Shown here: piece after piece, positions 13,946 through 56,900 of the stretch
Numbering within the stretch: the stretch's first letter is position 1
Layout of the letters: every line of letters begins with the position of its first letter
Source: Squalus acanthias
Taxonomy: Eukaryota
Direction of reading: 5' to 3'
Assembly (NCBI GenBank): GCA_030390025.1
Contig: CM059431.1
Location: 96,040,001-96,104,000, forward strand
DNA: 64,000 nucleotides
Notes under the pieces: generated by a model
Database searches by the model: none
What the model was told of the DNA's origin: nothing
What the model saw: only the letters and a program-made list of their open reading frames with translations
Translations under genes and position numbers: made by a program

Positions 13946-15920
13946 TAGTACTTCAAATTAAATTGTGCAAGGCCAGTTTCAAAGTACTAAAAGACAAATT
14001 TATGAAGAGCTCCTTCATACAAAGTGATCAACACATGGGCTCCCAGATAGAGTAGTAGAGGCATGCTACAGTTATTATATAAGTAGAACGTTGGGGAGAA
14101 GACATTGTTCAGCAAACTAAAATGTCACAGATATTAAATAATTTGCCTTGTAATTCCCTCCATGCTTTTTGTATGGTTAGAAGTACAAATTGCTATGTAT
14201 TGATCAATAATAATGTAAATGATACCTTTCAGAGTGAGAACGAATAGACCAGGCCTTGCCTATTAATTATCAAATAGTCAGACGATTCCATCGGACTAGA
14301 AGGTGGGCTCTTAAGTGAGAAACAAAAACTACAAACTTAGGAAAATATTCAACTAACTTAACAGACAGCCTGACTCATGTTATCCCCTCTCCATGGCGCT
14401 GCACCTACCCCCTTCATATTACAGGGAAGATTTCACAATAATGCTGCACACAAAATATTCAAACATTCCCAAAAAGCACAAACTTTAAGCAAAGCTTACA
14501 TGTAGCAGTTGTGACTGGTCAGTTTCACTGGAAGCTTCCCCAGTGCTAGAAAGAGAAGGTCCTTGAGGGGTCAAAGACAGAATCTATTTGGTTGGAGTTA
14601 AGAAATAAAGAAGCTATTACACTACTTGGTATATTTTATAGGCCACCAAATAGTGAGAAGGAGATAGAGGAGCAGATTTGCAAGGAAGTTACTGAGAGGT
14701 GCAAGAACTATAGAGTAGTGATAATGGGAGACTTTAACTACCCCAATATTGAATGGGGCAGTGATTGTGTTAAGGGCAGAGAAGGGGAGGTTTTCTTAAG
14801 TGTGTTCAGGAGAATTTTCTTGATCAGTATGTTTTCTGCCCAATGAGGAAGGAGGCATTGTTGGATCTAGTCCTGCAAAATGAAGTGGGTCAAGTGGAGA
14901 ATGGCATCGTAGGGGAGCATCTCGGGAATAGTGAACATAATATACTAAGGTTTAGATTAGTTATGGGGAAGTACAAGGAGCAATCTAGAATAAAGATACT
15001 TAACTGGAGGAAGGCTAATTTCAGTGAATTGAGGAGAGATCTGGCCCCGGTTAATTGGAGTCAACGGCTGGCAGACAGAAATACAATGGAGCAATGGGCA
15101 GCCTTTAAAGAGATGATTCGGTTAAAGTCTAGGTACATTCCCACAAGTGGGAATGGGAGAACAACTATAGCTAGAGTTCCCTGGATGACAAAGAAGTTAG
15201 AGAGTAGGATGAAATAGAAAAAAAGGGACGTATGACAGATGTCAGCTTGATAATACAAGGGAGAATCAGGCTGAATATAACAAGTACAGAGAAGTGAAAA
15301 AGGAAATGAGGAGCAAAGAGACAGTACAAGAATAGATTGGTGGCCATCATAAAAGAGAATCCAAAGGCCTTCTACAGGCATATTAACAGTAAAAGAATTG
15401 TCATAGGAGCGGTGAGGCCGATTAGTGAACAAAATGGGCATCTATTGGTGAAGGCAGAAAGCATAGCTGAGGTACTAAATGAGTACTTTGCATCGGTATT
15501 TACCAAGGAAGAGGACTTTGCCAAAGGTGAGGAGGTTGTCCAGATACTGAAAAGATAAAAATAGGTAAGAAGCTATCTGAAAGGCTGGCAGTACTTAAAG
15601 TAGATAAGTCACCTGGTCCAGATGGGATGCATCCTAGGTTGCGGAGGGAAGTAAGGGTAGAAATTGCGGAGGTGCTGGCCACAATCTTCCAATCCTCTTT
15701 AGAAACAGGGGTGGTGCCAGAGGACTGGAGGATTGCAAATGTTACACCCTTGTTCAAAAAAGGGGAGCAGGATAAACCTGGCAATTACAGGCCAGTCAGT
15801 GGTCGAGAAGCTTTAACAAACAATAATCTGGGAGAAAATTAATAGCCACTTGGACAAGTATGGACTAATAAAGGAGAGCCAGCATGGATTTGTTAAGGGC
15901 AAATTGTGTTTGACTAAGTT

Positions 15921-18139: not shown

Positions 18140-20210
18140 TAGAGTCAGAGTCATAATGGCACAGAAGATGGCTATTCGGCCCATCAAGTCTGTGCCAGCT
18201 CTCTCTAGAGCAATCCAGTCAGTTACATTCCCCTGCTCTATCCCCATAGCCCTGCAAGTTTATTTCCCTCAAGTGCCTATCCAGTCTCCCCTTGAAAACA
18301 TTGAGTGTCTCCGCTTCCACCACTTCTGTAGACAGCGAGTTCCAGGTCCTCACCACTCGCAGCGTAAAAACATTTTTCCCTCACATCCCCCTGTATCTCT
18401 TACCCAAAACCTTAAATCTGTGTCCCCTAGTCCTTGTACCATCAACTAGTGGGAACAGTCTTTCCCCGTCTGGCCTATCCAAACCAGTCAATCTTCTACA
18501 CTTCTATCAAATCACCCCTCAACCTCCTTTACTCCAATGAAATCAAGTCCAGCTTCTCCAACCTGTCCTTGTAGCAAAGATCCCCCATCCCCGGAACCAT
18601 TCTGGTAAATCTCCTCTGCACCCTCTCAGGGGCCTTCACATCCTTCCCAAAGTGTAGTGACCAGAACTGGACACAATACTCCAGTTGTGGCCTAACCAGT
18701 GCTTTATAAAGGTTCAGCATAACATCTCTACTTTTGTACTCAATACCTCTATTTATGCAGCCCAAGATCCCATATGCTTTGTTAACCACTCTCTCAATAT
18801 GTCCCACCACCTTCAGGGACCTATGCACATTAACTCCCAGGTACCTCTGTCCCTGCACACTCTTTAAAACTGTGCCATTAAGTGTATATTGCTTCTCCCT
18901 GTTGCTTCTGCCAAAATGCATCACCTCACACTTCTCTCTATTAAATTCCATCTGCCAGTTCTCTACCCATTCTGCTAGCCTTTCCATGTCCTATTGCAGT
19001 CGATTGGTATCATCACTGTTTGCCACACCCCCAAGTTTGGTGTCATCGGCAAATTTAAAAATTCTGCTCTGGATTCCAATATCCAGGTCATTAATATATA
19101 TCAAAAAAAGCTGTGGCCCAAGCACTGACCCTTGGGGAACACCACTGTCTACCATCCTCCAGTCTGAAAAATAGCCATTTACCACAACTCGCTGTTTTCT
19201 GTCTTTAAGCCAATTCCTTATCCAAGCTGCCACTGACCCAGCTATTCCATGAGCCTCAATTTTGTTAACCAGCCTTCTATGTGGTACTTTGTCAAACGCC
19301 TTCCGAAAATCCGTATAGACAACATCCATTGCATTCCCTTCATCGATCCTCCCTGTTAGAGCATCAAAAGATTCAATTAGATTAGTCAAACACAATCTGC
19401 CTTTTACAAATCCATGTTGGCGCTCCTTAATTAGCTTAAACCTCTCCAAGTGCCCATTAATTTTTTCATTGACTATTGTTTCTAAAACTTTACCCACCAC
19501 TGATGTTAAACTGACCGGCCTGCAGTTACTAGGATTGTCCTTATACCCTTTCTTGAACAATGGTGTCACATTTGCCACTTTCAAATCCTCAGGCACCTCC
19601 CCCGCATTTAGGGAAGATTGGAAAATTATGGCAAGCCCTTCCGTTATCTTCTCCCCCAATTCCCTTAGCAACCTGGGATGCAAGTCATCTGGACCAGGCG
19701 ACTTATCCACTCTTAGCGTACCCAGCCTTTCTCGTACATCCTGTCCATCAATTTTCACCCCTTCCATTGCTTCTACTTTTCCACTTCTGATATTGTCAGC
19801 ATCCACCTCCTTAGTAAACACCGATACAAAGTACTCATTGAGTATTCAAGCCTTGCCCTAAGCCTCGAAGCATATAACACCTTCTTTGTCCCTAATAGGT
19901 CCCACCCTGCCTCTTACTACCCGCTTACTGTTTACATGCTGGTAGAAGAATTTTGGGTTCCCTTTTATGCTAATCACCATTCTACTCTCATATTCTCTCT
20001 TTGCCAATCTTTTCATCTTCACTTCCCCTCTCAACTTATTGTATTTCGTCTGGTTCTCCCTTGAAGAAGTCACCTGACATTCATCATACACTCGTACCCA
20101 AGTGTTCTCCCACAGACACTTGGTCGACCTGGCCCACCTCATTCCCCAGCACCAGATCCAGCAATGCCTCCTTCCTAGTTGGGCCAAGAACATACTGGTC
20201 AAGGAACTTT
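18140..20210 (-). mobile_element. CR1 LINE ORF2 remnant with internal deletion
   Basis: ORFs 18529-18987 and 18991-19821 ([18 protein letters not shown]); 3' tail near 18140. Confidence 0.9.
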
Positions 20211-21060
20211 ATGCGAAATTCTATCATATTATGATCACTCTGCCCCAAAGGATCCTTTACTATGAGATTGCTAATTAACCCGGTCTCATTACACAATACA
20301 AGATCTGAAATAGCCTGTTCGCTGGTTGGTTCCATGATGTAGTGTTTTAGGAAACTGTCCCGAATGCATTCCATGAACTCGTCCTCCAGACTACCTTTAC
20401 CAATTTGATTTGTCCAGTCTATATGAAGATTCAAGTCCCCCACGATTATTGCATTATCTTTGTTACAAACTCCTCCTATTTCTTGATTAATATTCTGTCC
20501 AACGGTATAGCTACTATATACCACTCCCACCAGTGTTTTCTGCCCCTTGTTATACCTTATCTCCACCCATACGGATTCTACTTCCTGATCTTCTGAGCCA
20601 AGATCCTTTTTCTCTACTGAGCTTGTGTCATCCTTTACTATCAGGGCTACCCCCTCCTTTTCCATTCTGCCTGTCTTTTCGAAATGTCAAGTACCCTGGA
20701 ACATTTAGTTCCCAACCTTGGTCACCTTGCAACCACATCTCTGTAATGGCTATTAGATCAAACCCATTGATCTCTATTTGTGACACTAGTTCATCTATCT
20801 TGTTACAAATGCTTTGTGCATTCAGATAAAGAGCCTTTAATTTAATTTTTTTACCATTATTCCCTGCTTTGACCTTATTCTCTGCCGCACTGCTGCTGTT
20901 AAACTCTCTGTCCCTTCCTGTCACACACTGCTTATTTTTACTCAAATTGCTACACTGCTCTATTGCCTTGACCTTTCTCTTTAGGTTTCTAAATTTGCCC
21001 TCACCTGACCCCCTTCCCCACCTCCCCATTTTTTTTTTTTTAGTTTAAAGCCCTATCTAT
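20211..21060 (-). mobile_element. CR1 fragment: ORF1 end and APE endonuclease N-half
   Basis: LYLNAQSICNK, ITEMWL, GDLNLH, SDHNMI; upstream AGG GCT TTA AAC TAA resembles the ORF1 end. Confidence 0.85.
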
Positions 21061-26726: not shown

Positions 26727-29717
26727 TCAGTACCCTGTACCTGCCTTCTCCCCATATCCCTGGATACCTTTAGCTTTAAGAAATATATCTAACTCAACCT
26801 TGAATATATTTAATGACTTCGCCTCAACTACCTTCTGTGGTAGAGAATTCCACAGGTTCACCACTCTCTGGGTGAAGAAATTCTTCCTCATTTCTGTCCT
26901 AAATGGTTTACCCGTTATCCGTAGATTATGACCCCTGGTTCTGGACTCTCCAACCATCGGGAACATTCTTCCTGCATCTAGTTTGTCCAGACCTGTCAGA
27001 ATTTTATATGTTTCGATGAGATCCCCTCTCATTCTTCTATACTCCAGTGAGTACAAGCCCAATCGACCCAATCTCTCCTCATATGTCATTCCTGCCATTC
27101 CAGGTATCAGCCTTGTGAATCTTCGCTGAACTCCTTCCATGGCAAGAACATCCTTCCTCAGATAAGGCGACCAAAACTGCACACAGTACTCAAGGTGTGG
27201 TCTCACCAAGGCCCTGTACAACTGCAGCAGGACATCCCTGTTCCTATACTCAAACCCTTTCGCTATGAAGGCCAACATACCATTTGCCTTCTTCACCGCC
27301 TGCTGCACCTGCATGCTTACTTTCAGCGACTGGTGCACAAGGACACCCAGGTCTCGTTGCACTTCCCCTTCGCCAAATCTATTGCCATTCAGATAATAGT
27401 CTGCCTTTCTGTTTTTGACACCAAAGTTGATAACCTCGCACTTATCCACATTATATTGCATCTGCCACGCTTCTGCCCACTCACCCAACCTGTCCAGATC
27501 ATCCTGGAGTTTCTCGGTATCCTCCTCGCAGCACACACTCCCACCCAGCTTTGTGTCATCTGCAAACTTGGAGATATTACATTGAATTCCCTTATCTAGA
27601 TCATTAATGTATACTGTGAATAGCTGGGGTCCAAGGACCAATCCCTGCGGTACCCCACTAGTCACTGCTTGCCACTCGGAAAAAGACCCATTAATTCCTA
27701 CTCTCTGCTTTCTGTCCGCCAACCAGTTCTCTATCCAAGTCAATACCTTGCCCCCAATCCCATGTGCCTTAACTTTACCCGCTAATCTCTTATGCGGGAC
27801 CTTATCGAAAGCCTTTTGAAAGTCCAAATACACCACATCTACTGGTTCTCCCTTATCTATTTTCCCAGTTAAATCCTCCAAAAGTTCCAGTAGATTAGTC
27901 AAGCACGATTTTCCTTTTGTAAATCCATGTTGACTTTGTCCGATCCTGTCACTGTTTTTCAAATGCTCAGCTTTTACATCCTTTATAATGGACTCTAGCA
28001 TTTCCCCACTACCGATGTCAGGCTTACCGGTCTGTAATTCCCCGCTTTCTCTCTACCACCCTTTTTGAATAGTGGGGTAACATTAGCTACTCTCCAATCC
28101 ATGGGTACAGTTCCAGATTCCATCGAATGTTGGAAGATGATCAGCAATGCATCTACTATTTCTAGGGCCACTTCCTTAAGTACCCTAGGATGTAGATTAT
28201 CAGGCCCTGGGGATTTATTGGCCTTCAATACCGTCAATTTCCCTAACACCATTTTCCTGCAAATACTGATTTCTTTCAGTTCCTCCCTTTCATCAGACCG
28301 TATGTTCTCCAACATCTCTGGGAGCTTATTTGTGTCCTCCTTTGTGAAGACAGAACCAAAATGTGTGTTTAATTGGTCTGCCATTTCTTTGTTCCCCATT
28401 ATAACTTCCCCCGCTTCTGACTGCAAGGGACCTACACTTGATTTCACTAATCTTTTTCTCTTCACATATCTATAAAAGCTCTTAGTCAGTTTTTATGTTC
28501 CCAGCAAGCTTACTTTCATATTCTATTTTCCCCTTCTTAATTAATCCCTTTGTCCTCCTTTGTTGAATCCTAAACTGCTCCCAATCCTCAGGGCTACCGC
28601 TTTTTCTGGCCAATTTATATGCCCTCTCCTTGGATCTTATGCTATCCCTAATTTCCCTTGACAGCCACGGTTGAGTCACCCTTTTTGTTTTATTCTTATG
28701 CCACACAGGAATGTACAAATTCTGTAGTTCATCCATGCAGTCTTTGAATGTTTGCCATTGCCTATCCACAGTCAACTCCTTGAGTGACATTCCCCAATCA
28801 ATCCTACCCAATTCACGCCTCATACCATCGTAGTTTCCTTTATTTAAATTCAGGACCCTAGTCTCTGATTCAACTACTTCACTCTCCATCCTAATGAAGA
28901 ATTCTATCATATTATGATCACTCAGACCCAAGGGGCCTCTTACAACAAGATTGCCAATTAATCCTTTCTCGTTACATAATACCCAGTCTAAGATGGCCTG
29001 ATCTCTGGTTGGTTCCTCGACATATTGTTCCAGAAAACCATCTCGTAAACATTCTAGGAATTCCTCCTCCACAGTATTTTTACTAATTTGGTTAGCCCAA
29101 TCTATATGTAAATTAAAGTCACCCATGATGACTGCTGTGCCCTTACTGCATGCTTCTCTAATTTCCCTTTTAATGCCGTCCCCAAACTCCGTATTACTGT
29201 TTGGAGGTCTATATACCACTCCCACTAACGTTTTCTGCCCCTTGTTATTTCTCAGTTCGACCCATACAGATTCCGCATCATCAGAGCTAATATCCTTCCT
29301 TTCAATTGTGTTAATCCCCTCTTTAGCCAGCAATGCTACCCCACCTCCCTTTCTTTTTTGCCTATCTTTCCTAAATATTGAATAACCCTGGATGTTGAGT
29401 TCCCAGCCTTGGCCACCCTGGAGCCATGTTTCTGTAATCCCAATCAAATCGTATTCATTTACCTCTATTTGCGCAGCTAATTCATCCACCTTGTTCCGAA
29501 TGCTCCTTGCATTAAGACACAAAGCCTTCAGGCTTGTTTTTTTAACGCTCTCAGACCTATATGAATTATTATTTACTGTGACCATGTTTGATTTAAACCG
29601 TTGAGTTCGTTGCCTTCTACTTTTGTTTTTCTCCTTCCTGTCTTTTGCTTTTATCCTTGTTTCCCTTTCCTCTGTCTCCCTGCTCAGGTTCCCAACCCCC
29701 TGCCACTTTAGTTTGAA
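26727..29717 (-). pseudogene. CR1 ORF2 (APE endonuclease + reverse transcriptase) with two compensating frameshifts
   Basis: [25 protein letters not shown] (APE); QHGF, GVPQG, FADD (RT); breaks near 28480 and 28000. Confidence 0.93.
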
Positions 29718-30652
29718 CCCTCCCCAACAGCACTAGCAAACACTCCGCCTTGGACATCGGTCCCGGCCCTGCCCAGGTGCAGACCATCCCGTTTGTACTG
29801 GTCCCACCTCCCCCAGAACCAGTTCCAATGTCCAAGGAATTTGAATCCCTCCCCCTTGCACCATTCCTCTAGCCACATATTCATTTGAAATATCCTTCTA
29901 TTTCTACTCTGACTAGCACGTGGCACTGGTAGCAATCCTGAGATTACTACCTTTGAGGTCCTCTTTTTTAATTTACCTCCTAACTCCCTATATTCTGCTT
30001 TTAGGACCTCATCCCGTTTTTTACCTATATCGTTGATGCCTATGTGCACCACGACAACTGGCTGTTCGCCCTCCCCCTCCAAAGTGTTCTGCAGCCGCTC
30101 CGAGACGTCCTTGACCCTTGCACCAGGGAGGCAACACACCATCCTGGAGTCTCGATTGCGGCCGCAGAAACGCCTATCTATTCCCCTTACAATTGAGTCC
30201 TGTATCACTATAGCTCTTCCACACTTTTTCCTCCCAACCTGTGCAGCAGAGCCACCCATGGTGCCAGGAAGTTGGCTGCTGCCGCCTTCCCCTGATAAGT
30301 CACCCCCCCACACAGCATCCAAAGTGGTATATCTGTTTGAGAGGGGGATGGCCACAGGGGACCCCTGCACTACCTGCCTGCACCTCTTACTCTGCCTGGT
30401 GGTCACCCATTCACTTCCTGCCTGTACACCCTTTACCTGCGGTGTGACCAACTCGCTAAACGTGTTATTCACGACGTTCTCAGCGTCGCGAATGCTCCAA
30501 TATGCATCCATCCGCAGCTCCAGCGCCGCATTGCGGTCCGTCAGTAGCTGCATACATTTCCCACACACATGGTCGTCAGGGACACAGGAAGTGTCCCTGA
30601 TTTCCCACATATTGCAGGAGGAGCACACCACGGCGCCGAGCTCTCCTGACAT
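29708..30652 (-). CDS. CR1 ORF1: N-terminal Cys zinc finger, coiled coil, SGNH/GDSL esterase domain
   Basis: CSSC...CGKC; (G>Q)DSIVR block I, HIGIND block III, DGLH block V; open for 314 aa, but the GDS glycine is replaced by Gln. Confidence 0.85.
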   Translation of the reverse strand: MSGELGAVVCSSCNMWEIRDTSCVPDDHVCGKCMQLLTDRNAALELRMDAYWSIRDAENVVNNTFSELVTPQVKGVQAGSEWVTTRQSKRCRQVVQGSPVAIPLSNRYTTLDAVWGGDLSGEGGSSQLPGTMGGSAAQVGRKKCGRAIVIQDSIVRGIDRRFCGRNRDSRMVCCLPGARVKDVSERLQNTLEGEGEQPVVVVHIGINDIGKKRDEVLKAEYRELGGKLKKRTSKVVISGLLPVPRASQSRNRRIFQMNMWLEEWCKGEGFKFLGHWNWFWGRWDQYKRDGLHLGRAGTDVQGGVFASAVGEGSN

Positions 30653-39931: not shown

Positions 39932-40879
39932 ATGGCAGTAGAGCTCGGACCTGTGTCATGCTCCTCCTGTAACATGTGGGAAATCAGGGACGCTTCCTGT
40001 GTCCCTGACAACCATGTGTGCGGGAAGTGTGTCCAGCTGCAGCTCATGTGGGACCGCATGACGGCCCTTGAGCTGCGGATGGACTCACTTTGGAGCATCC
40101 ACGATTCTGAGAGGGTTGTGGATAGCACATTTAGTGAGTTGGTCACACCGCAGGTTAAGGCCAGCGTAGATAGTACATGGGTGACCAAAAGGCAGAGCAA
40201 GGGCAGGAAGGTAGTGCAGAAATCCCCTGGGGTTGTCTCCCTTAGCAACAGGTTCACCGCTTAGGTGCTGTTGTCGGGGGGGATGACTCATCGGGGGAAG
40301 GCACCAGCAGCCAGGCTCATGGCACAATGACTGGCTCTGTTGCAAAGAAGGGAGGGAAAAAGAGTGGCAGGGCTATAGTAATAGGGGATTCGATTGTAAG
40401 GGGAATAGATAGGGGTTTCTGTGGTCGCGACCGAGACTCCAGGATGGTATGTTGCCTCCCTGGTGCAAGGGTCAAGGATGTCTCGGCGCGGGTGCAGAAC
40501 ATTCTGGAAGGGGAGGGGGAACAGCCAGTTGTCGTGATACATGTTGGTACCAACGACGTAGCTAAAAAAAAGGGAAGAGGTCCTACAAGTAGAATTTAGG
40601 GAGTTAGGAGCCAAGCTAAAAAGTAGGACCTCGAAGGTAGTAATCTCTGGATTACTACCAGTGCCACGTGCTAGTAAGAGTACAGAGAACAGGATAGTTA
40701 GGCTAAATACGTGGCTTGAGCAGTGGTGTAAGAGGGAGGGTTTTAAATTTTTGAGGCATTGGAACCAGTTTTGTGGTAGGTGTGACCTATACAAAAGGGA
40801 CGGTCTACACCTGTGCAAAGATGGAACTGATGTTCTCGGGGTAATTTTTGATAAAGCAGTTCGGGAGCATTTAAACTAG
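39932..40879 (+). pseudogene. CR1 ORF1 (zinc finger + SGNH esterase) with two frameshifts
   Basis: CSSCNMWE...CGKC, GDSIVRG, HVGTND, DGLHL; breaks near 40260 and in the A-run near 40565. Confidence 0.9.
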
Positions 40880-43747
40880 TATGGCAGGGGGCTAGAAACC
40901 TATGTAGTGAAATAGAGGAAAGTGAAAGGCAGACAGAAATAAATGGTAAAAGGGTAAGGAACAAAAAACAAAGGGCCAAACTAATTCATAAAAAATGTGA
41001 GCATAAAAAAAGCCTGAGGGTTTTATACCTTAATGCGAGAAGCATCAGGAACAAGGTAGATGAATTAGCTGTGGAAATAGAGGTTAATAATTATGATCTA
41101 ATTGGGATTACGGAAACATGGTTGCAGGGTGAGCAGGGCTGGAAGCTTAACATACAGGGGTATTCAGTATTTAGGAAGGATCGACAAAAAAGAAAGGGAG
41201 GAGGGGTAGCATTGCTGGTAAAAGAGGGGATAAATGCAATTGAAAGGAAGGATATTAACTCAGTTAATACAGAATCTATATGGGTGGAGCTAAGAAATAG
41301 CGAGGGGCGAAAAACATTAATAGGAGTGGTATATAGGCCTCCAAATAGTAAAATAGAGGTTGGGGAGGGCATCACGAGGGAAATTAGAGAAGCGTGCAAT
41401 AAGAGCACAGCTGTCATCATAGGTGACTTTAACTTACATATAGATTGGACTAGCCTAATCAGTAAAAATAATGAGGAGGAGGAATTCCTTGAGTGTTTAA
41501 GGGATGGTTATCTGGATCAATATGTCGAGGAACCAACTCGGGAACAGGCTATATTGGACTGGGTACTGTGCAATGAGAAGGGACTAATTAGTAATCTTGT
41601 TGTACGGGGACCCTTGGGTCAGAGCGATCATAACATGATCGATTTCTCACTCGAAACGGAGAGCGAAGAAATTGACTCAGAGACTAAGGTCCTGAATTTA
41701 AACAAGGGGAATTATGATGCCATTAGACGGGAACTGAGTAGGTGTGATTGGACAATGTTCCTGGGAGGACTGGAGGTAGATAAACAATGGCAAGCATTTA
41801 AAGATAGAATGACAAAATTGCAAAAATTGTTTATACCAATCTGGCATAAAAGGAAATCTAAAAAGGTGACTCAACCGTGGATAACAGGGGAAATTAGAGA
41901 CAGCATAACATCCAAAGATAGGGCATATAAAATAGCCAAAAAAAGCGCCAGAGCGGAAGATTGGGAACAGTTTAAGATAGAGCAAAGGAGGACAAAGGGC
42001 TTAATCAAGAGGGGCAAAATAGCTTACGAAAGCAAGCTGGCGGAAAATATAAAAACTAACTCCAAAAGCTTTTATAAGTATATCAAGAGGAAAAGACTGG
42101 TGAAAACCAAAGTTGGTCCATTGCAGTCAGATACGGGGGAATATATAACGGGAAATAAGGAAATGGCAGACCAACTAAATGCATACTTTGGGTCAGTCTT
42201 TACGAAGGAAGACACAAAAAACCTCCCTGGGATATCGGGAAAAATAGGGACATTGGCAAAGGAGGAACTGACGCAAATCAATATCTCTAAGGATATGGTG
42301 TTAAGGAAGCTAAAGGGATTGAAGGCGGACAAATCACCAGGGCCTGATAACATGCATCCTAGGGTACTGAAGGAGGTGGCCCTAGAGATAGCGGATGCAC
42401 TAAGTATGATTTTTCAGAATTCATTAGACTCGGGAACAGTGCCCATGGATTGGAGGGTAGCTAACGTTACCCCACTATTCAAAAAGGGGGGTAGGGAAAA
42501 AGCAGGTAATTACAGACCTGTAAGCCTTACATCAGTTGTGGGCAAAATGCTGGAGTCCATCATTAAGGATGAAATAGCGGAGCACTTAGCAAATGGGGAC
42601 AGGATAGGACAGAGTCAACATGGATTTACAAAGGGTAAATCGTGCTTGACTAATCTATTGGAATTTTTTGAGGGAGTAACTGGTAAAATAGATGGGGGAG
42701 AGCCAGTAGATGTGGTGTACCTGGACTTCCAAAAGGCCTTCGACAAGGTCCCACATAAAAGATTAGCATGGAAAATTGAAGCTCATGGGATAAAGGGGAA
42801 AGTATTGACGTGGATAGAGAACTGGCTGTCAGATAGAAAACAGAGAGTTGGAATAAACGGCTCATTTTCTGAATGGCAGGCAGTAACAAGTGGGGTACCA
42901 CAGGGATCTGTCCTGGGTCCCCAGCTGTTCACAATTTACATTAATGACCTGGATCAGGGAGTCGGATGCAGCATTTCCAAATTTGCAGACGACACTAAAC
43001 TAGGAGGGGGGGGGTGGGCTCAGAGAAGGAGACCAGGAAGCTCCAGAGCGATTTGGACAGACTGGGTGATTGGGCGGATAAATGGCAGATGCACTATAAT
43101 GTGGACAAGTGCGAAGTTATCCACCTTGGGTGCAGGAACGGGAGGGCAAATTATTATTTAAATGGCAATAAATTGGGAGAGGGGGAAGTACAGAGAGACC
43201 TGGGTGTTCTTGTACACCAGTCACTGAAGGCGAGCATGCAGGTGCAACAGGCGGTCAAGAAGGCAAACGGTATGCTGGCCTTCATAGCAAAAGGGTTGGA
43301 ATACAGGAACAGGGATACCTTGCTGCAGCTGTACAGGGCACTGGTGAGACCACACCTCGAGTACTGTGTACAGTTTTGGTCGCCTCATCTGAGGAAAGAT
43401 GTTCTTGCCATGGAGGGGGTGCAGCGGCGATTCACCAGGCTGATACCAGGAATGGCGGGATTGACCTATGAGGAGAGACTATGTAGTTTAGGGATGTACA
43501 CACTGGAGTTTAGAAGATTGAGAGGGGACCTCATAGAAGTGTATAAAATTCTGACAGGTCTAGACAGATTAGATGCAGAAGGAATGTTTCCCTTGGCGGG
43601 TGAGAACAGAACTAGAGGACATAATTTAAGGATAAGGGCTAAACCATTTAGGACAGAAATGAGGGGGAATTTCTTCACTCAGAGGGTGGTGAACCTGTGG
43701 AACTCATTGCCACAGAGGGCAGTGTACGCCAGCTCAATAAATATATT
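40870..43747 (+). pseudogene. CR1 ORF2 (APE + RT), one frameshift in the G-run near 43007-43014
   Basis: Frame open from 40831 through [21 protein letters not shown] and FADD; C-terminus continues in ORF 43014-43796. Confidence 0.93.
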
Positions 43748-43999
43748 CCCCCCCCCCCCCCCCCCCCCCCCCCAAGTCTCTACAGAAAACCCGTGAAAAC
43801 TCTCTGGCAGCAATCAGCGTAGGGAATGGCGAGTGCCATTCCTTCGCCGCTGACCACAAAATCCGAGTCCTTGTCCTTGAAATTCGTTAGGTCCCCACTG
43901 TTTTTGAAAGATTTTGGCAGTCTGCCACTGCAGTTCTGATGGGAGAACGGCAGTCAATCATTTTTAATTATAAATAAATCTGACATTAGTTTAGCCTGT

Positions 44000-45179: not shown

Positions 45180-46740
45180 CTTTCTCGATCAGTATGTTTC
45201 CGCCCAATGAGGGAGGAGGCATTGCTGGATCTGGTTCTGGGGAATAAGGTGGGTCAAGTGGAGCAAGTGTCAGTAGGTGAACATTTAGGGAACAGTGAGC
45301 ATAGTATCATAAGGTTTTGATTAGCTTTGGAAAAGCACAGGGAGCAATCTAGAGTAAAAAATACTTAATTGGAGGAAGGCTAATTTCAGTGGGTTGAGAA
45401 TGGATCTGGCCCAGGTAAATTGGAATCAAAGATTGGCAGGCAAAATTGTAGTGGTACAATAGGCTGCCTTTAAAGAGGTGATGGTTCAGGTACAGTCGAG
45501 GTACATTCCCACAAGGGGGAGAGGTAGGGTAACCAAAGTCAGAGCTCCCTGGATGACGAAAGAGATAGAGAGTAAGATGAAGCAGAAAAAGGGGGTGTAT
45601 AACAGATGTCAGGTTGAGAATATAATTAAGAACCAGGCTGAATATAGAAGGTTCAGAGGGAAAGTGAAAAAGGAAGTAAGAGGGGCAAAGAGAGAGATTG
45701 GCAGCTAATATAAGAGGGAATCCAAAAGTCTTCTATTGGGATATAAATAGTAAACGGGTAATAGGCATATAAATAGTAAACGGGTAGTAAGAGGAGGGGT
45801 GGGGCCGATTAGTGACCAAAATGGAGACCTACGCATGAAGGCAGAGGGCATGGCTGAGGTACTAAATGAATACTTTGCATCTGTCTTTACCAAGGAAGAA
45901 GATGCTGCCAAAGTCATAGTGAAAGAGGAGGTAGTTGAGATACTGGATGGGATAAAAATTGATAAAGAGGAGGTACTAGAAAGGCTGGCTGTACTTAAAG
46001 TAGATAAGTCACCAGGACCGGATGGGATGCATCCTAGGATGCGGAGGGAAGTAAAGGTAGAAACTGCGGAGGTACTGGCCATAATCTTGCAATCCTCCTT
46101 AGATATGGGGGTGGTGCCAGAGGACTGGAAAATTGCAAATGTTACACCCTTGTTCAGGCCAGTCAGTTTAGCCTCGGTAGTGGGGAAGCTTTTAGAAATG
46201 ATAATCCGGGACAAAATTAAAAGTCACTTGGACAAGTGTGGATTAATTAAGGAAAGCCACCATGGATTTGTTAAAGGCAAATCATGTTTAAATAACTTGA
46301 TTTGAGTTTTTTGAAGAGATAACAGAGAGGGTTGATGAACACAATGTGGTTGATGTGCTGTACATGGACTTCCAAAAAGTGTTTGATAAAGTGCCACATA
46401 ATAGGCTTGCCATGCTTCCACTGTCGTATTTATTCCCCATGGATAACCAGAGGGCACAGATTTAAGGTAATTGGCAAAAGAACCAGACACGAGACGAGGA
46501 AAAACAAATTATGCAATGAGTGGTTAGGATTTGGAATGCACTGCCTGATAGGGTAGTGGATACAGATTTAATAGTAGCCTTCAAAAGGGAATTGGATAGA
46601 TTCTTGAAGGTGAAAAGATTGCAGGGATATAGGGAAAGAGCAGGGGATGGGCCGAACTGGATTGCTCTTCGAAAGAGCCGGCGCAGACTCAATGGGCCGA
46701 ATGGGCCTCCTTCTGTGCTGTACTATTCTATGACTCTTTG
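45180..46740 (+). mobile_element. Degraded CR1 ORF2 pieces with 3' end
   Basis: LNEYFASVFTKE, KSPGPDGMHPR, HGFVKGKSCL, TRGHRFK, (TATGACTC) tail. Confidence 0.85.
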
Positions 46741-53990: not shown

Positions 53991-56900
53991 CAGTGTTGAA
54001 ACTGTAATCCATGGGCTACAAGCAGATCCTAGCCCTGAGATTTCACTCCTCAAGACTCAGGCAATTCAGTAATTCAGTCCTATTTGTTATGTATTTTCTT
54101 ATATTTACTAGCTTGTCCTGTTTGAATGTTGTGGGCCTGGTGGAGGTTTGCTAAGGTTTATTGTCTGTTTGGTGCATAAATCAGATCAAGATCTTGAGAT
54201 ATGTGCAACTTAATTGGAACAGGGACTTAAACTTTTCATGTGGCACCCAAGACTTCATTGTATGTACTTGTGTGGCCCACGGAGTCTTGGCGACCACATA
54301 TACAGGCACAAAGCTTGGAGATGAGTGGGACAACTACTCCAATTGGTAATGATACAATTTAGCCATATTACATTACACAGAGTAGTATACACCTTGTTGG
54401 GGCTACTGTTCTGTGAAGGATCAGCCTATTATTGAAAACCATTGATATTGGGGTGTAGGAGCAGTTCTGGTAACCAAGTACTGTTCTTCGAAGTAGGTTT
54501 CAAAACAAACCTTTTAAAACAGTGAAGAGAGGAATTTGATACGAGTACATTCAACCGTCATGCGATGGCATCACCGACAGTCACTTCCAGGTTTATTTGC
54601 CCCTTGGCTGCCATGTTGTATCAAGAGAAGAACACAGTGCACAGAAGCAGTTCTATAAAATGTTTTAATGCAATTTATTTGATTTAATTCAAACAAGCTG
54701 AACTTTGCAGCAGTACTAAAAGCTTTTTCTGTGGTAAATGTTTGTACTAATCAAGGTGAGCGATGTCAATGCAAGTGAATAGAATGAATGATTGCTTCTT
54801 TCACTTGGGGCACCTAGTGACAGCATCAAACATCCCCAGGTTAGTTATAGCATAGCCAGGTGCAGCTCCTGTAGTGCACCAGTGACCCATCCTTAGAAAA
54901 ACAACTTCCTTCACCCGACAGCACTAGTGTGACATTTTCATTTCTTGCACCAGCCGTCAGAGCGATATTACCAATTTGGCACAGATGACACTAAACTGGC
55001 AGCTGGATGTGTGCTATGGGTCTGTGTCCTCTAAGAACTTGGCTGAGACTGACCAAACTCATTTCACTAATACGATAGCAAAATACTGCGGATGCTGGAA
55101 ATCCGAAATAACAACAGAAAACGCTGGAAAAACTCAGCAGGCCAGACAACATCCGTGGAGAGAGAAACAGAGTTAACTCATTTCATGCAAGGTCCTGATA
55201 GCCAGCAAACAGTAAACTTTCAGTCCTGGCCAGATTCAGATCCAGGTCCCTCAGGTGAAAGAACCATGTGCTAACACACTGTCGCAGCTAAGTCTACAAG
55301 TGGTTCACCTTCTCAGGGCAACTAGGGATGGGCAGTAAATGCGGCAAACTGGTGTCAGCTATCGGATAAACAAACAAAAACTTAAAAATGTAAGAAATCT
55401 GTGCTGTATGACTGATGCTGTACATTGGGTACATGAACTTGCTGTAGTGCGAATATCATTGAAGATTGTGATTTATTTTAGCTTGTTTAATAATAAGGTT
55501 AGGTTAGGTCATGTAGCAATTCAGTATGAGATAACAATCAACATGAAATAGGTAATAAACCAATAAAAGTGGGAGGGAGTGGGCTCAGTCAGAAATAAAA
55601 ATAGCCTAAAGAAAAAGGAATGAGAGCAAAGTCCAGATCATCAATAATGTTAAAAGGTAATATAAATACTTCAAGTTTAGAAAAAAAATATAGGAAATAA
55701 CAAAATAACTGATAAAAGTACAACAGAAGTAATGAAAAACAAGGAGTGTGATAAGTTAAAATATGTGAGAAGAACAGCATCAAGACAGATGAGTAGGGTC
55801 TGTTGTTCAACACACTAATGCACAGAGCATAAAGATTAAAACAAGTGAATTAGCAGCACAAATTTAGCTTAAAGGATATGACGTATTGGCCATCACGGAG
55901 ACCTGACTAAAAGCTGGGCGATAAATATACCAGGTTATAAGGGCATTAGAAAGGACAGGGAAATTGGAAAAGGAGGAGTAGCAGCAATTTTGACAAAGGG
56001 CACTATTACAGCATTAGAAAGTGGAGATCTCAGTCCGGGTGAGCAAGCAGTAGAAACTGCTGATTGGTGGTCAAAATGCTATTGAGATAAGCTTTGATGT
56101 TGTTTCTCCATAGACTGTAAATAATAGGGAAATTGTTAGCTTGCCTCACCAATCTATAAACACCTCATACCCATTGGGTTGGGAAGGCACTGATCTATTC
56201 TGGCTGTGAACACAGGATGATGGAAAAAAAGAGACACAGGCAGTCAAGTTTGAAACAGAAAGCTGTGAAGGCAAGCTGTGGCCAGGCTCAGGAGAATACA
56301 AGCAGCTTTTTAGGAGTTAGCTTAAGTCAAGGAAGACAACCCACTGATAGGAGAAAGCATAGCAAATTCATTTTTGTATTATAATGTAAAGACAAGAAAA
56401 TATTTTATATAAACAGAAGTTAAAAGGAAAAACAAAACAACGATATCTTGAAAGAGATTTCCATCCCCGAGGACGCCAACCATAAACAAAAACATTTCTC
56501 AGATCAGCACGTTGGGATACCAACATACTGCCCCAAAGCAGTGGGGAACGAAGTTTCAGCTTCCACATTGCTGATTTTTGCTACACTATTCTTGGAACGT
56601 GTCAAATATCCTCTATGCAGAAACAGAGAGGGAATTTTAATCAGGAGGAGTTTAGTTGCGGGAGGTTAAAACTGGCAAAAATGTCAACGCACGGGAAGCC
56701 AGCGAACCCACTAACTTCCGAGTTTAACTTGAGCACGTTAGGCTGCTTGCCTGCAACCCCCTCGGGAGAGGCGGGTTGCCTATTAACAGATGCTAATCGC
56801 TCAATTAGAGCGATATTTCAACTCACTTTAAAGTTTAACGTGTCCACAGGTTTCCCGGGCTTCCTGAAAGTTGCCAGTGAAGGCAAGGTGAGAGCACAGC

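Follow-up and report, generated by a model that had tools for sequence, protein, structure and literature searches.

Introduction

CR1 elements are the dominant transposons of birds, reptiles and cartilaginous fishes. The translation of the second open reading frame (ORF2) of long interspersed elements (LINEs) is a long-standing question, and to our knowledge experimental answers exist only for L1 and SART1 and are incomplete. The present analysis concerns the junction of ORF1 and ORF2 in a CR1-type LINE of Squalus acanthias. The element lies in a stretch of 64,000 nucleotides (nt), termed the window (assembly GCA_030390025.1, contig CM059431.1, positions 96,040,001 to 96,104,000, forward strand), and coordinates below are those of the window. 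Human L1 and Bombyx SART1 resemble this element in having a bicistronic RNA with a signal at the ORF1 stop, and ORF2 expression that is presumably low and dependent on ribosomes coming from ORF1. L1 has a spacer between its ORFs, and SART1 has a UAAUG overlap with an AUG (available text of PMC5009743 and PMC3894237). Chicken and turtle CR1 elements, which belong to the same clade as the window element and have an ORF1 (zinc-finger-like plus esterase) followed by ORF2, are described as having "two closely spaced ORFs" (Haas et al. 1997; Kajikawa et al. 1997; Kapitonov and Jurka 2003; all as cited in the available part of PMC4316615).

The gag-pol (pro-pol) junctions of retroviruses and long terminal repeat (LTR) elements provide a second comparison. 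These have a slippery heptamer of the same class and phase where the upstream "structural" ORF ends, with the enzyme ORF in the -1 frame without a start of its own, a short overlap, and a minor fusion product expected. The heptamer U_UUA_AAC is the ORF1a/1b slip site of coronaviruses and arteriviruses. Slippage by -1 in the ribosomal P site at a "shifty stop" is known from potato virus M (AAAAUGA). Arterivirus nsp2TF (a C-rich motif) and cardiovirus 2A are examples of frameshifting that a protein stimulates, the linear motif lying about 11 nt downstream. A 2016 review of recoding, in its available part, names only HeT-A, TART and L1 among non-LTR elements. Full-text literature searches that included recoding, non-LTR translation and CR1 surveys yielded, in the text available, no description of a CR1 frameshift site, and an earlier mention in the founding papers (Haas 1997, Kajikawa 1997, Kapitonov and Jurka 2003) is possible.

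The junction described here probably, though far from certainly, represents a site of -1 ribosomal frameshifting on U_UUA_AAC at low efficiency, to which the adjacent stop codon would contribute and which would yield an ORF1-ORF2 fusion. Unlike the gag-pol elements, CR1 is a non-LTR element whose ORF1 protein (ORF1p) is of esterase type and not Gag; its zero-frame stop abuts the heptamer in every lineage, and its folds show no downstream pseudoknot or stem-loop. Unlike L1 and SART1, the lineage of the window copy (lineage A) has no AUG for ORF2, its ORFs overlap in the -1 frame, and the slip site is conserved at synonymous positions.

The element and its ORF1/ORF2 junction

Judged from its domains and its ORF1 relatives, the element is a CR1-type LINE with an esterase ORF1 and an endonuclease (EN)/reverse transcriptase (RT) ORF2. 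An intact lineage A ORF1 elsewhere in the genome (315 amino acids (aa), locus L002:733-1677) gave Pfam matches to Lipase_GDSL_2 (4.4e-11) and OSK (1.3e-8), and the GDS, GxND and DxxH blocks are retained in the ORF1 alignment. ORF2 matches Exo_endo_phos (9.4e-10), Exo_endo_phos_2 (3.4e-10) and RVT_1 (2.8e-26). The nearest named relatives of ORF1 are CR1-like proteins of sharks, rays, turtles and squamates. The window copy itself is dead: its ORF1 is distributed over three frames, and its ORF2 has a break near 43000-43160 and goes on in frame 42999..43796.

The frame at 40562..40879 encodes the C-terminal end of the SGNH esterase and closes with CAT TTA AAC TAG (40868-40879), within the sequence ..GAG CAT TTA AAC TAG TAT GGC AGG GGG.. 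at positions 40865-40891. An earlier note, made from the letters of the window alone, had pointed to TTTAAAC in exact X_XXY_YYZ phase directly before the ORF1 stop, and had identified the -1 frame as that of ORF2. Sequence and frames bear out both statements. In the -1 frame the heptamer region reads TTT AAA CTA GTA TGG CAG GGG, and the 768-codon ORF that contains it bears the Exo_endo_phos and RVT_1 domains. The same note had this frame open from 40831, which is wrong, as TGA (40849-51) and TAA (40852-54) shut it upstream of the heptamer. With the opening at 40855, any shift must fall within positions 40855-40879, i.e. eight codons.

The first ATG in the ORF2 frame was correctly placed by the note at about 41635. 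It is codon 260 of the frame and lies past almost the whole endonuclease domain, and thus cannot be the ORF2 start. An ATG in the third frame (40881-40883) closes after four codons. An ORF2-frame ATG close to the ORF1 stop, as in a stop-start junction of the SART1 type, is absent from lineages A-F (see below).

The sequence TTTAAACTAG is present once in the window, with 0.15 occurrences expected. There are one to three in-phase XXXYYYZ heptamers per ORF1 of ~316 codons, so the chance that one falls on the last two codons is about 1 in 100, conservation not being counted. The other in-phase heptamers of ORF1, one or two per lineage, are not common to the lineages. Features of the window are listed in Table 1.

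Table 1. Positions of the junction features and of related CR1 sequence in the window.
Feature	Position	Strand	Basis or remark
ORF1: N-terminal Cys-rich and coiled part, then SGNH/GDSL esterase	39932..40879	+	tblastn with intact ORF1 matches 39932..40876
Last -1-frame stop, TAA	40852..40854	+	-1 frame opens at 40855, five codons before TTT
ORF2 frame, -1 relative to ORF1: 53-codon linker from TTT, APE-type endonuclease, start of RT	40855..43161	+	768-codon ORF; Pfam
Slippery heptamer TTTAAAC in T_TTA_AAC zero-frame phase, last two sense codons of ORF1 (Leu-Asn)	40870..40876	+	Sequence; same in all lineage representatives
ORF1 stop TAG, abutting the 3' side of the heptamer; candidate "shifty stop" pause	40877..40879	+	
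G-rich tract TGGCAGGGGG	40882..40891	+	GGGGG at 40887-40891, 10 nt after the heptamer
First ATG in the ORF2 frame (..SDHNM..)	41635..41637 (about)	+	Codon 260 from the frame opening, 255 codons after TTT
Junction of a second, older CR1 copy (lineage B, 78% identical; copy about 30652..28845)	29711..29717	-	Heptamer decayed to TTCAAAC, then TAA

Lineages of the element in the host genome

A search of the 3.7 Gb host genome with a 105-aa ORF1 query gave 63,089 first-look candidates for lineage A. All 150 that were scored are 99-100% identical, and an open frame of 316 codons is a very frequent value among them. Lineage A is very young and abundant. The 37 loci that were fetched, two of which are the window itself, all read CAT TTA AAC TAG, and in several of them ORF1 is intact at 315 aa. 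Because identity among such young copies is uninformative on selection, diverged lineages were sought, using as queries the older B copy of the window, the Pfam esterase model and two public ORF1 proteins. Eight lineages beyond A were recovered, all of them high-copy, to give nine in total (A, A2, B, C, C', D, E, F and F'). The Pfam-guided search gave only the C, D and E types; the distant lineages were obtained with the turtle-like and the unnamed public ORF1 queries.

Sequence nearly identical to positions 40600-41200 of the window (0.89 of the sampled 31-mers) is present in runs under seven different coded organism labels. Lineage A is common to several labelled taxa almost unchanged, by way of recent common ancestry or of transfer.

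All nine lineages display T_TTA_AAC, an immediate stop, and ORF2 in the -1 frame. Lineage B reads GGT TTA AAC TAA, with TTTAAAC in 26 of 30 loci (24 with TAA, 2 with TGA) and TTCAAAC in the other four, which include the B copy of the window. Lineage A2 reads GAT TTA AAC TAA, with TAT or CAT as the first codon in single copies; the heptamer is found in 10/10 loci and the stop in 9/10. Lineages C, C', D and E show GGT TTA AAC followed by TAG or TAA. Among 41 loci of this set, taken from the Pfam table, the slip phase is accompanied by the stop in 28 and by loss of the stop in 1, the phase is fused in 4, and the heptamer is mutated in 8. Long open frames were the criterion for picking the first 20, which are enriched for fusions. 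Lineage F reads GCT TTA AAC TAA (heptamer in 19/19 loci, stop in 18/19), and its ORF2 is in the -1 frame in 16 of the 19, the other three having length changes in the downstream G-run. Lineage F' is represented by one copy, a chance find in locus L045, with a different linker. TAA as the ORF1 stop is found in lineages other than that of the window, and TGA in rare copies.

Alignment of many CR1 copies had been proposed in the earlier note as a check. It shows that the heptamer and its phase are invariant in the nine lineages and in three amniote-like contigs (see below) and that the flanking codons vary. Synonymous variants of the heptamer (CTN for Leu, AAT for Asn), which the note had taken as potential evidence against a frameshift, are the majority state in no lineage.

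Nucleotide conservation around the heptamer

Representatives of the lineages were aligned backwards from the ORF1 stop. The sequence TTTAAACTA is invariant in the 10 representatives shown in this alignment, and A2 and F, which are blank there, carry the same TTTAAACTA in the locus tallies. Invariant are the T before the Leu codon, TTA, AAC and the TA of the stop; all others of the last 25 codons vary in at least one lineage. The codon that precedes the heptamer is CAT, GAT, TAT, GGT or GCT (His, Asp, Tyr, Gly or Ala), and its third base is always T. TTA accounts for 11 of 82 Leu codons in these ORF1s and AAC for 16 of 29 Asn codons. The ORF1 proteins of A and B are 72% identical, and those of A or B are 43-44% identical to that of F. 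The heptamer is thus kept at synonymous positions across ORF1s that are 43% identical, and in the amniote-like contigs as well.

On the 3' side of the stop there are three to four variable bases, and then a G-tract, TGGCAGGGGG in lineages A-E or GTGGGGGGGAGG in F and F'. All compared representatives long enough to include +11..+15 from the end of the heptamer have GGGGG there, although they do not encode the same peptide (WQG vs SGGE). Conservation of a KLxWQG motif, which the earlier note had proposed to examine, holds for lineages A-E and fails in F (FKLISGG) and in the amniote-like copies (FKLGSKG). The shared downstream feature is a nucleotide G-tract and not a peptide.

The -1 frame opens exactly five codons before TTT in ten representatives, which cover all lineages of the genome, and no other slippery site fits within this five-codon opening. 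From TTT to the endonuclease motif (L/F)NA(R/Q)S there are 51-70 codons, and the motif is always in frame with TTT. The linker sequences are unalignable between lineages. They are without stops in 7 of the 10 representatives, and the C2, E and B copies carry one or two stops each. Since frame and openness of the linker are kept through length changes upstream of the ATGs, the linker appears to be translated from the region of the ORF1 stop onward. An open, frame-locked linker would fit a frameshift and, equally, a restart at the stop.

Related elements in other organisms

The last 62 residues of ORF1 together with the linker of a fused lineage D copy (see below) were used as a phmmer query against 1.84 billion representatives, and the following concerns the best 150 of 262 relatives. 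A C-terminal Leu-Asn is found in 46 of these, with 0.7 expected from composition, and 29 of the 46 stop exactly 21 residues after the DGLHL block. The remaining relatives largely belong to a DGLHPS.. lineage with other C-termini. Ten of the proteins ending in Leu-Asn were looked up. Their named sources include Pristiophorus japonicus, Narcine bancroftii, Acipenser sinensis, Chrysemys picta, Macrochelys and Chelydra, Zootoca vivipara and Erythrolamprus reginae, so that shark, ray, sturgeon, turtle, lizard and snake are all represented. These proteins are 30-66% identical to the ORF1 of lineage A. In an alignment of 11 proteins the Leu and the Asn are two of 29 invariant columns, and the approximately ten residues before them are unconserved.

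Nucleotide sequences from outside sharks come from one scan of metagenome contigs (65 loci). Three amniote-like contigs (L190, L192 and L195), 45-54% identical to turtle or snake ORF1, end in ..ALN and read GCT TTA AAC TAG; the -1 frame opens 1-2 codons before TTT. In L192 the opening is only two codons before TTT, the endonuclease (..KCIYTNARS.., a start region typical of chicken and turtle CR1 ORF2) is in the -1 frame, and GGGGGAAGGGG starts 10 nt after the heptamer. Two decayed contigs (L191 and L200) still show GCTTTAAAC.

The same scan yielded a separate esterase-LINE lineage (L210, L211, L215, L216, L220/L222, L225, L233, L241, L249, L250 and L207). Here ORF1 and ORF2 are in the same frame and split by one stop (TGA CTA or TGA CCA; one copy has TAA). 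In 10 of 12 contigs ORF2 can be read directly from the codon after this stop, and the identical pair L220/L222 has a later stop in the linker. Readthrough of the stop codon or a restart at it may operate in this lineage, which would be a second way of making an ORF1-ORF2 product.

A 966-aa CR1 EN-RT protein (P0002) is filed under Carnobacterium maltaromaticum. This is evidently a vertebrate contamination of a bacterial assembly.

RNA structure downstream of the heptamer

The 100 nt after the slip site fold no better than shuffled sequences (z = +0.63 for lineage A and +0.41 for F). Single-sequence folds of eight representatives are mutually discordant, and RNAalifold on six lineages gives two pairs at -0.7 kcal/mol with no covariation. 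A stimulatory pseudoknot or stem-loop was thus absent from the folds, pseudoknots not having been sought with a dedicated tool, and the G-tract belongs to no predicted structure. This agrees with the earlier note, which had found no clear pseudoknot and only a G-rich tract, the GGGGG of which proves to be invariant.

Two kinds of stimulator were considered and rejected. A two-tetrad G-quadruplex could form in lineages B-E (GGCAGGGGGNTGGG); lineage A, the most active, has by eye no fourth G-tract nearby, and for this reason a G-quadruplex was dropped as a general explanation. A hairpin or pseudoknot is not indicated, as the folds disagree, no consensus emerges and the z-scores are positive. Because no stimulatory structure was found, the junction is classed as one that works like a -1 frameshift signal and not as a member of the heptamer-plus-structure class.

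Proposed mechanism

The conservation of the heptamer, its phase, the stop and the -1 position of ORF2 supports a Gag-Pol-like esterase-EN-RT fusion, as the earlier note had proposed, and the following steps are suggested. ORF1, for the esterase-type ORF1p, and ORF2 would be in overlapping frames on one CR1 mRNA. Most ribosomes would terminate at the ORF1 stop and release ORF1p. A small fraction would slip back by one nucleotide, either by a tandem slip (UUA to UUU and AAC to AAA) or by a slip of the P-site tRNA-Asn from AAC to AAA while the stop waits in the A site for release factor. The slipped ribosomes would go on in the ORF2 frame and produce a single ORF1p-linker-EN-RT polypeptide, with a junction in the window lineage of ..Leu-Asn followed by Leu-Val-Trp-Gln-Gly... 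Such a fusion may keep ORF2 low relative to ORF1 and hold the enzyme on the ORF1p/RNA particle, which is the Gag-Pol logic of retroviruses.

The abutting stop may act as a pause; its position directly 3' of the slippery codon resembles that of the shifty stop of potato virus M. The invariant G-tract at a fixed 10 nt may act by way of a bound factor. A conserved, unstructured purine tract at this distance resembles the arterivirus nsp2TF and cardiovirus 2A arrangements, with both the stimulator role and the binding protein hypothetical in CR1. As there is no structure downstream, a low rate of slippage would be expected. This rate would fit the need of a LINE for far less ORF2p than ORF1p.

CR1 would thereby be a non-LTR retrotransposon that uses -1 frameshifting of Gag-Pol style with an unusual signal free of structure, which the evidence, all of it comparative, makes reasonably probable. 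It would explain why CR1 ORF2 often has no sensible start codon. Annotation of CR1 ORF2, the "start" of which is now set at arbitrary downstream ATGs, would change, and recoding research would gain a frameshift signal consisting of an abutting stop and a G-tract without structure. A wider proposal is doubtful: that all vertebrate esterase-ORF1 CR1s have fused ORF1 and ORF2 by a U_UUA_AAC frameshift since before the split of sharks and bony vertebrates. The signal would then be of a new type, composed of a slip site, an abutting stop and an unstructured GGGGG bound by a protein, possibly ORF1p, that tunes the ratio of ORF1p to fusion, and the sister lineage with the in-frame UGA would reach its product by readthrough.

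Alternative explanations

Several findings weigh against a frameshift, among them the lack of a better-than-shuffled fold or of covariation downstream. A bare heptamer usually shifts at about 1% or less. The lineages of the genome share ancestry, and their agreement is not fully independent. The nucleotide evidence from outside sharks consists of three clean and two decayed metagenome contigs. Other contrary findings are given with the alternatives below.

Termination-coupled reinitiation, or another AUG-independent initiation, is the main alternative. The ribosome that has completed ORF1 would start again within a few nucleotides of the stop, in the ORF2 frame. This would produce a separate ORF2p, with TTTAAACTA and the G-tract as a restart signal, and is considered unlikely, though it must be taken seriously. 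Stop-coupled reinitiation is the established mechanism for ORF2 in L1 and SART1, the only LINEs studied (available text of PMC3894237, PMC2881922 and PMC5009743), as the earlier note had also stated. The stop always adjoins the conserved block, the linker is open from the stop onward, and a frameshift-stimulating structure is lacking, all of which a restart would accommodate. In the metagenome lineage with the in-frame TGA, an ATG or ACG is often found three codons past the TGA, so that the junction there is solved differently. In contig L242 the frame with the endonuclease match is shifted by -1 from that of the esterase and is open from 13 nt upstream of the stop; an ATG in it overlaps the esterase frame at its end (..ATGTGTAG..). 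The L242 stop is in an acidic linker, a good way beyond the esterase, and reading on in the esterase frame meets many stops, so that the end of ORF1 is uncertain. The public ORF2 prediction P0001 begins MQGDG where the sharks have WQGDG, i.e. Met in place of Trp. Against a restart, lineage A is without an ATG, and no near-cognate start (one base from ATG) is seen by eye in CTA GTA TGG CAG, the first ORF2-frame codons after the stop. Reinitiation does not predict a frozen wobble T, the rare TTA and the AAC, all in exact X_XXY_YYZ phase amid drifting codons. Nor would it require the -1 frame for ORF2 that all nine lineages have, none of them being at +1 or 0.

The heptamer may instead be a by-product. 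Leu-Asn would be needed by the esterase or ORF1p, the nucleotides would be kept by some other RNA signal (packaging or ORF1p binding), and ORF2 would be translated from downstream ATGs by leaky scanning or internal entry, with non-AUG initiation in lineage A. This seems improbable. A C-terminal Leu-Asn could be required by the esterase itself, and protein data cannot tell such a requirement from the heptamer; the two residues are as invariant as the catalytic residues in the protein alignment, and their distance from DGLHL is fixed in the 29 representatives (of the best 150 of 262) mentioned above. However, the codon choice is frozen and not the amino acids alone, and the T before the heptamer sits in codons for five different residues. 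An in-frame ATG upstream of the endonuclease, which had been named beforehand as evidence against a frameshift, does occur in eight of the nine lineages, i.e. in all but A, but not at a conserved position: by lineage, the first ORF2-frame ATG lies 16, 18, 19, 27, 43, 57/58 or 255 codons after TTT. The range outside lineage A is 16-58 codons, and the value of 255 belongs to A, the most prolific lineage, which has no ATG before that point. Also against a by-product is the linker ahead of these ATGs, which remains open and in a fixed frame with the heptamer although its length differs by up to 19 codons.

Some copies have ORF1 and ORF2 in one frame. A G8 run directly precedes the heptamer in lineage D, and its length varies from 8 to 15 among copies (loci L088-L127 and L179-L188). 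In lineage F the G7 run after the heptamer is G6 in two and G8 in one of 19 copies (L153, L163 and L166). For an unbiased D sample, the first 50 matches to a query of ORF1 alone were taken, frame disregarded, and 49 of these copies were evaluable. The standard phase is found in 40 of these (36 with intact heptamer and stop), a single frame (..GGFKLTWQG..) in seven, a shift the other way in one, and two indels in one. Some fused D copies are open for 878-898 aa, and five public predicted proteins are in the fused phase (P0013, P0064, P0103, P0112 and P0135). This suggests that the fusion protein is tolerated, on small numbers in which homopolymer artefacts are possible. A 200-aa fused D junction compared with longer proteins only gave six matches, none of them across the junction, with a best query coverage of 64%, which is weak evidence. 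One speculation is that an RNA with fused frames makes far more ORF2 activity in cis and is copied preferentially, which would explain an excess of fused copies. The 7-vs-1 excess is small and could reflect homopolymer mutation bias or assembly error, a further point on the contrary side.

Two raw RNA-seq runs with the same species label, in which 600 and 914 reads were placed, cover the junction. The depth in the bin 40873-40893 is 36+48 in one run and 83+41 in the other. Neither run shows inserted or deleted letters at 2% or more, or joints, at the junction. Thus the frame change is not made in the RNA of lineage A at a detectable level; editing, polymerase slippage and splicing do not detectably join the frames in this lineage. 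Reads are on both strands, which demonstrates transcription of the repeats and not a defined mRNA.

A joining of the frames at the nucleic-acid level, in which polymerase or RT slippage on G-runs or extra-base DNA variants would supply the ORF2 activity, finds its support in the fused D copies and the fused-phase public proteins and is highly improbable, as no homopolymer precedes the heptamer in lineage A, the most active, the junction reads of this lineage are unaltered, and fused copies are a minority even in D and absent among 37 A, 10 A2 and 19 F loci.

Other CR1 sequences in the window

Further 5'-truncated CR1-like ORF2 fragments of other lineages are found at 20207-20840 (-), 14556-15004 (+), 55805-56070 (+) and 45463-46305 (+), and none of the four reaches the ORF1/ORF2 junction.

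Upstream of the lineage B copy, at 31500-30700 (-), there is a tandem array with translated units ..GGAEKRRW*TGRPTEAADLGGAAAARRS*EKAVVNR... This array is probably a subunit repeat of the 5' untranslated region, of a kind known in some elements of the CR1 group (available part of PMC13343379).

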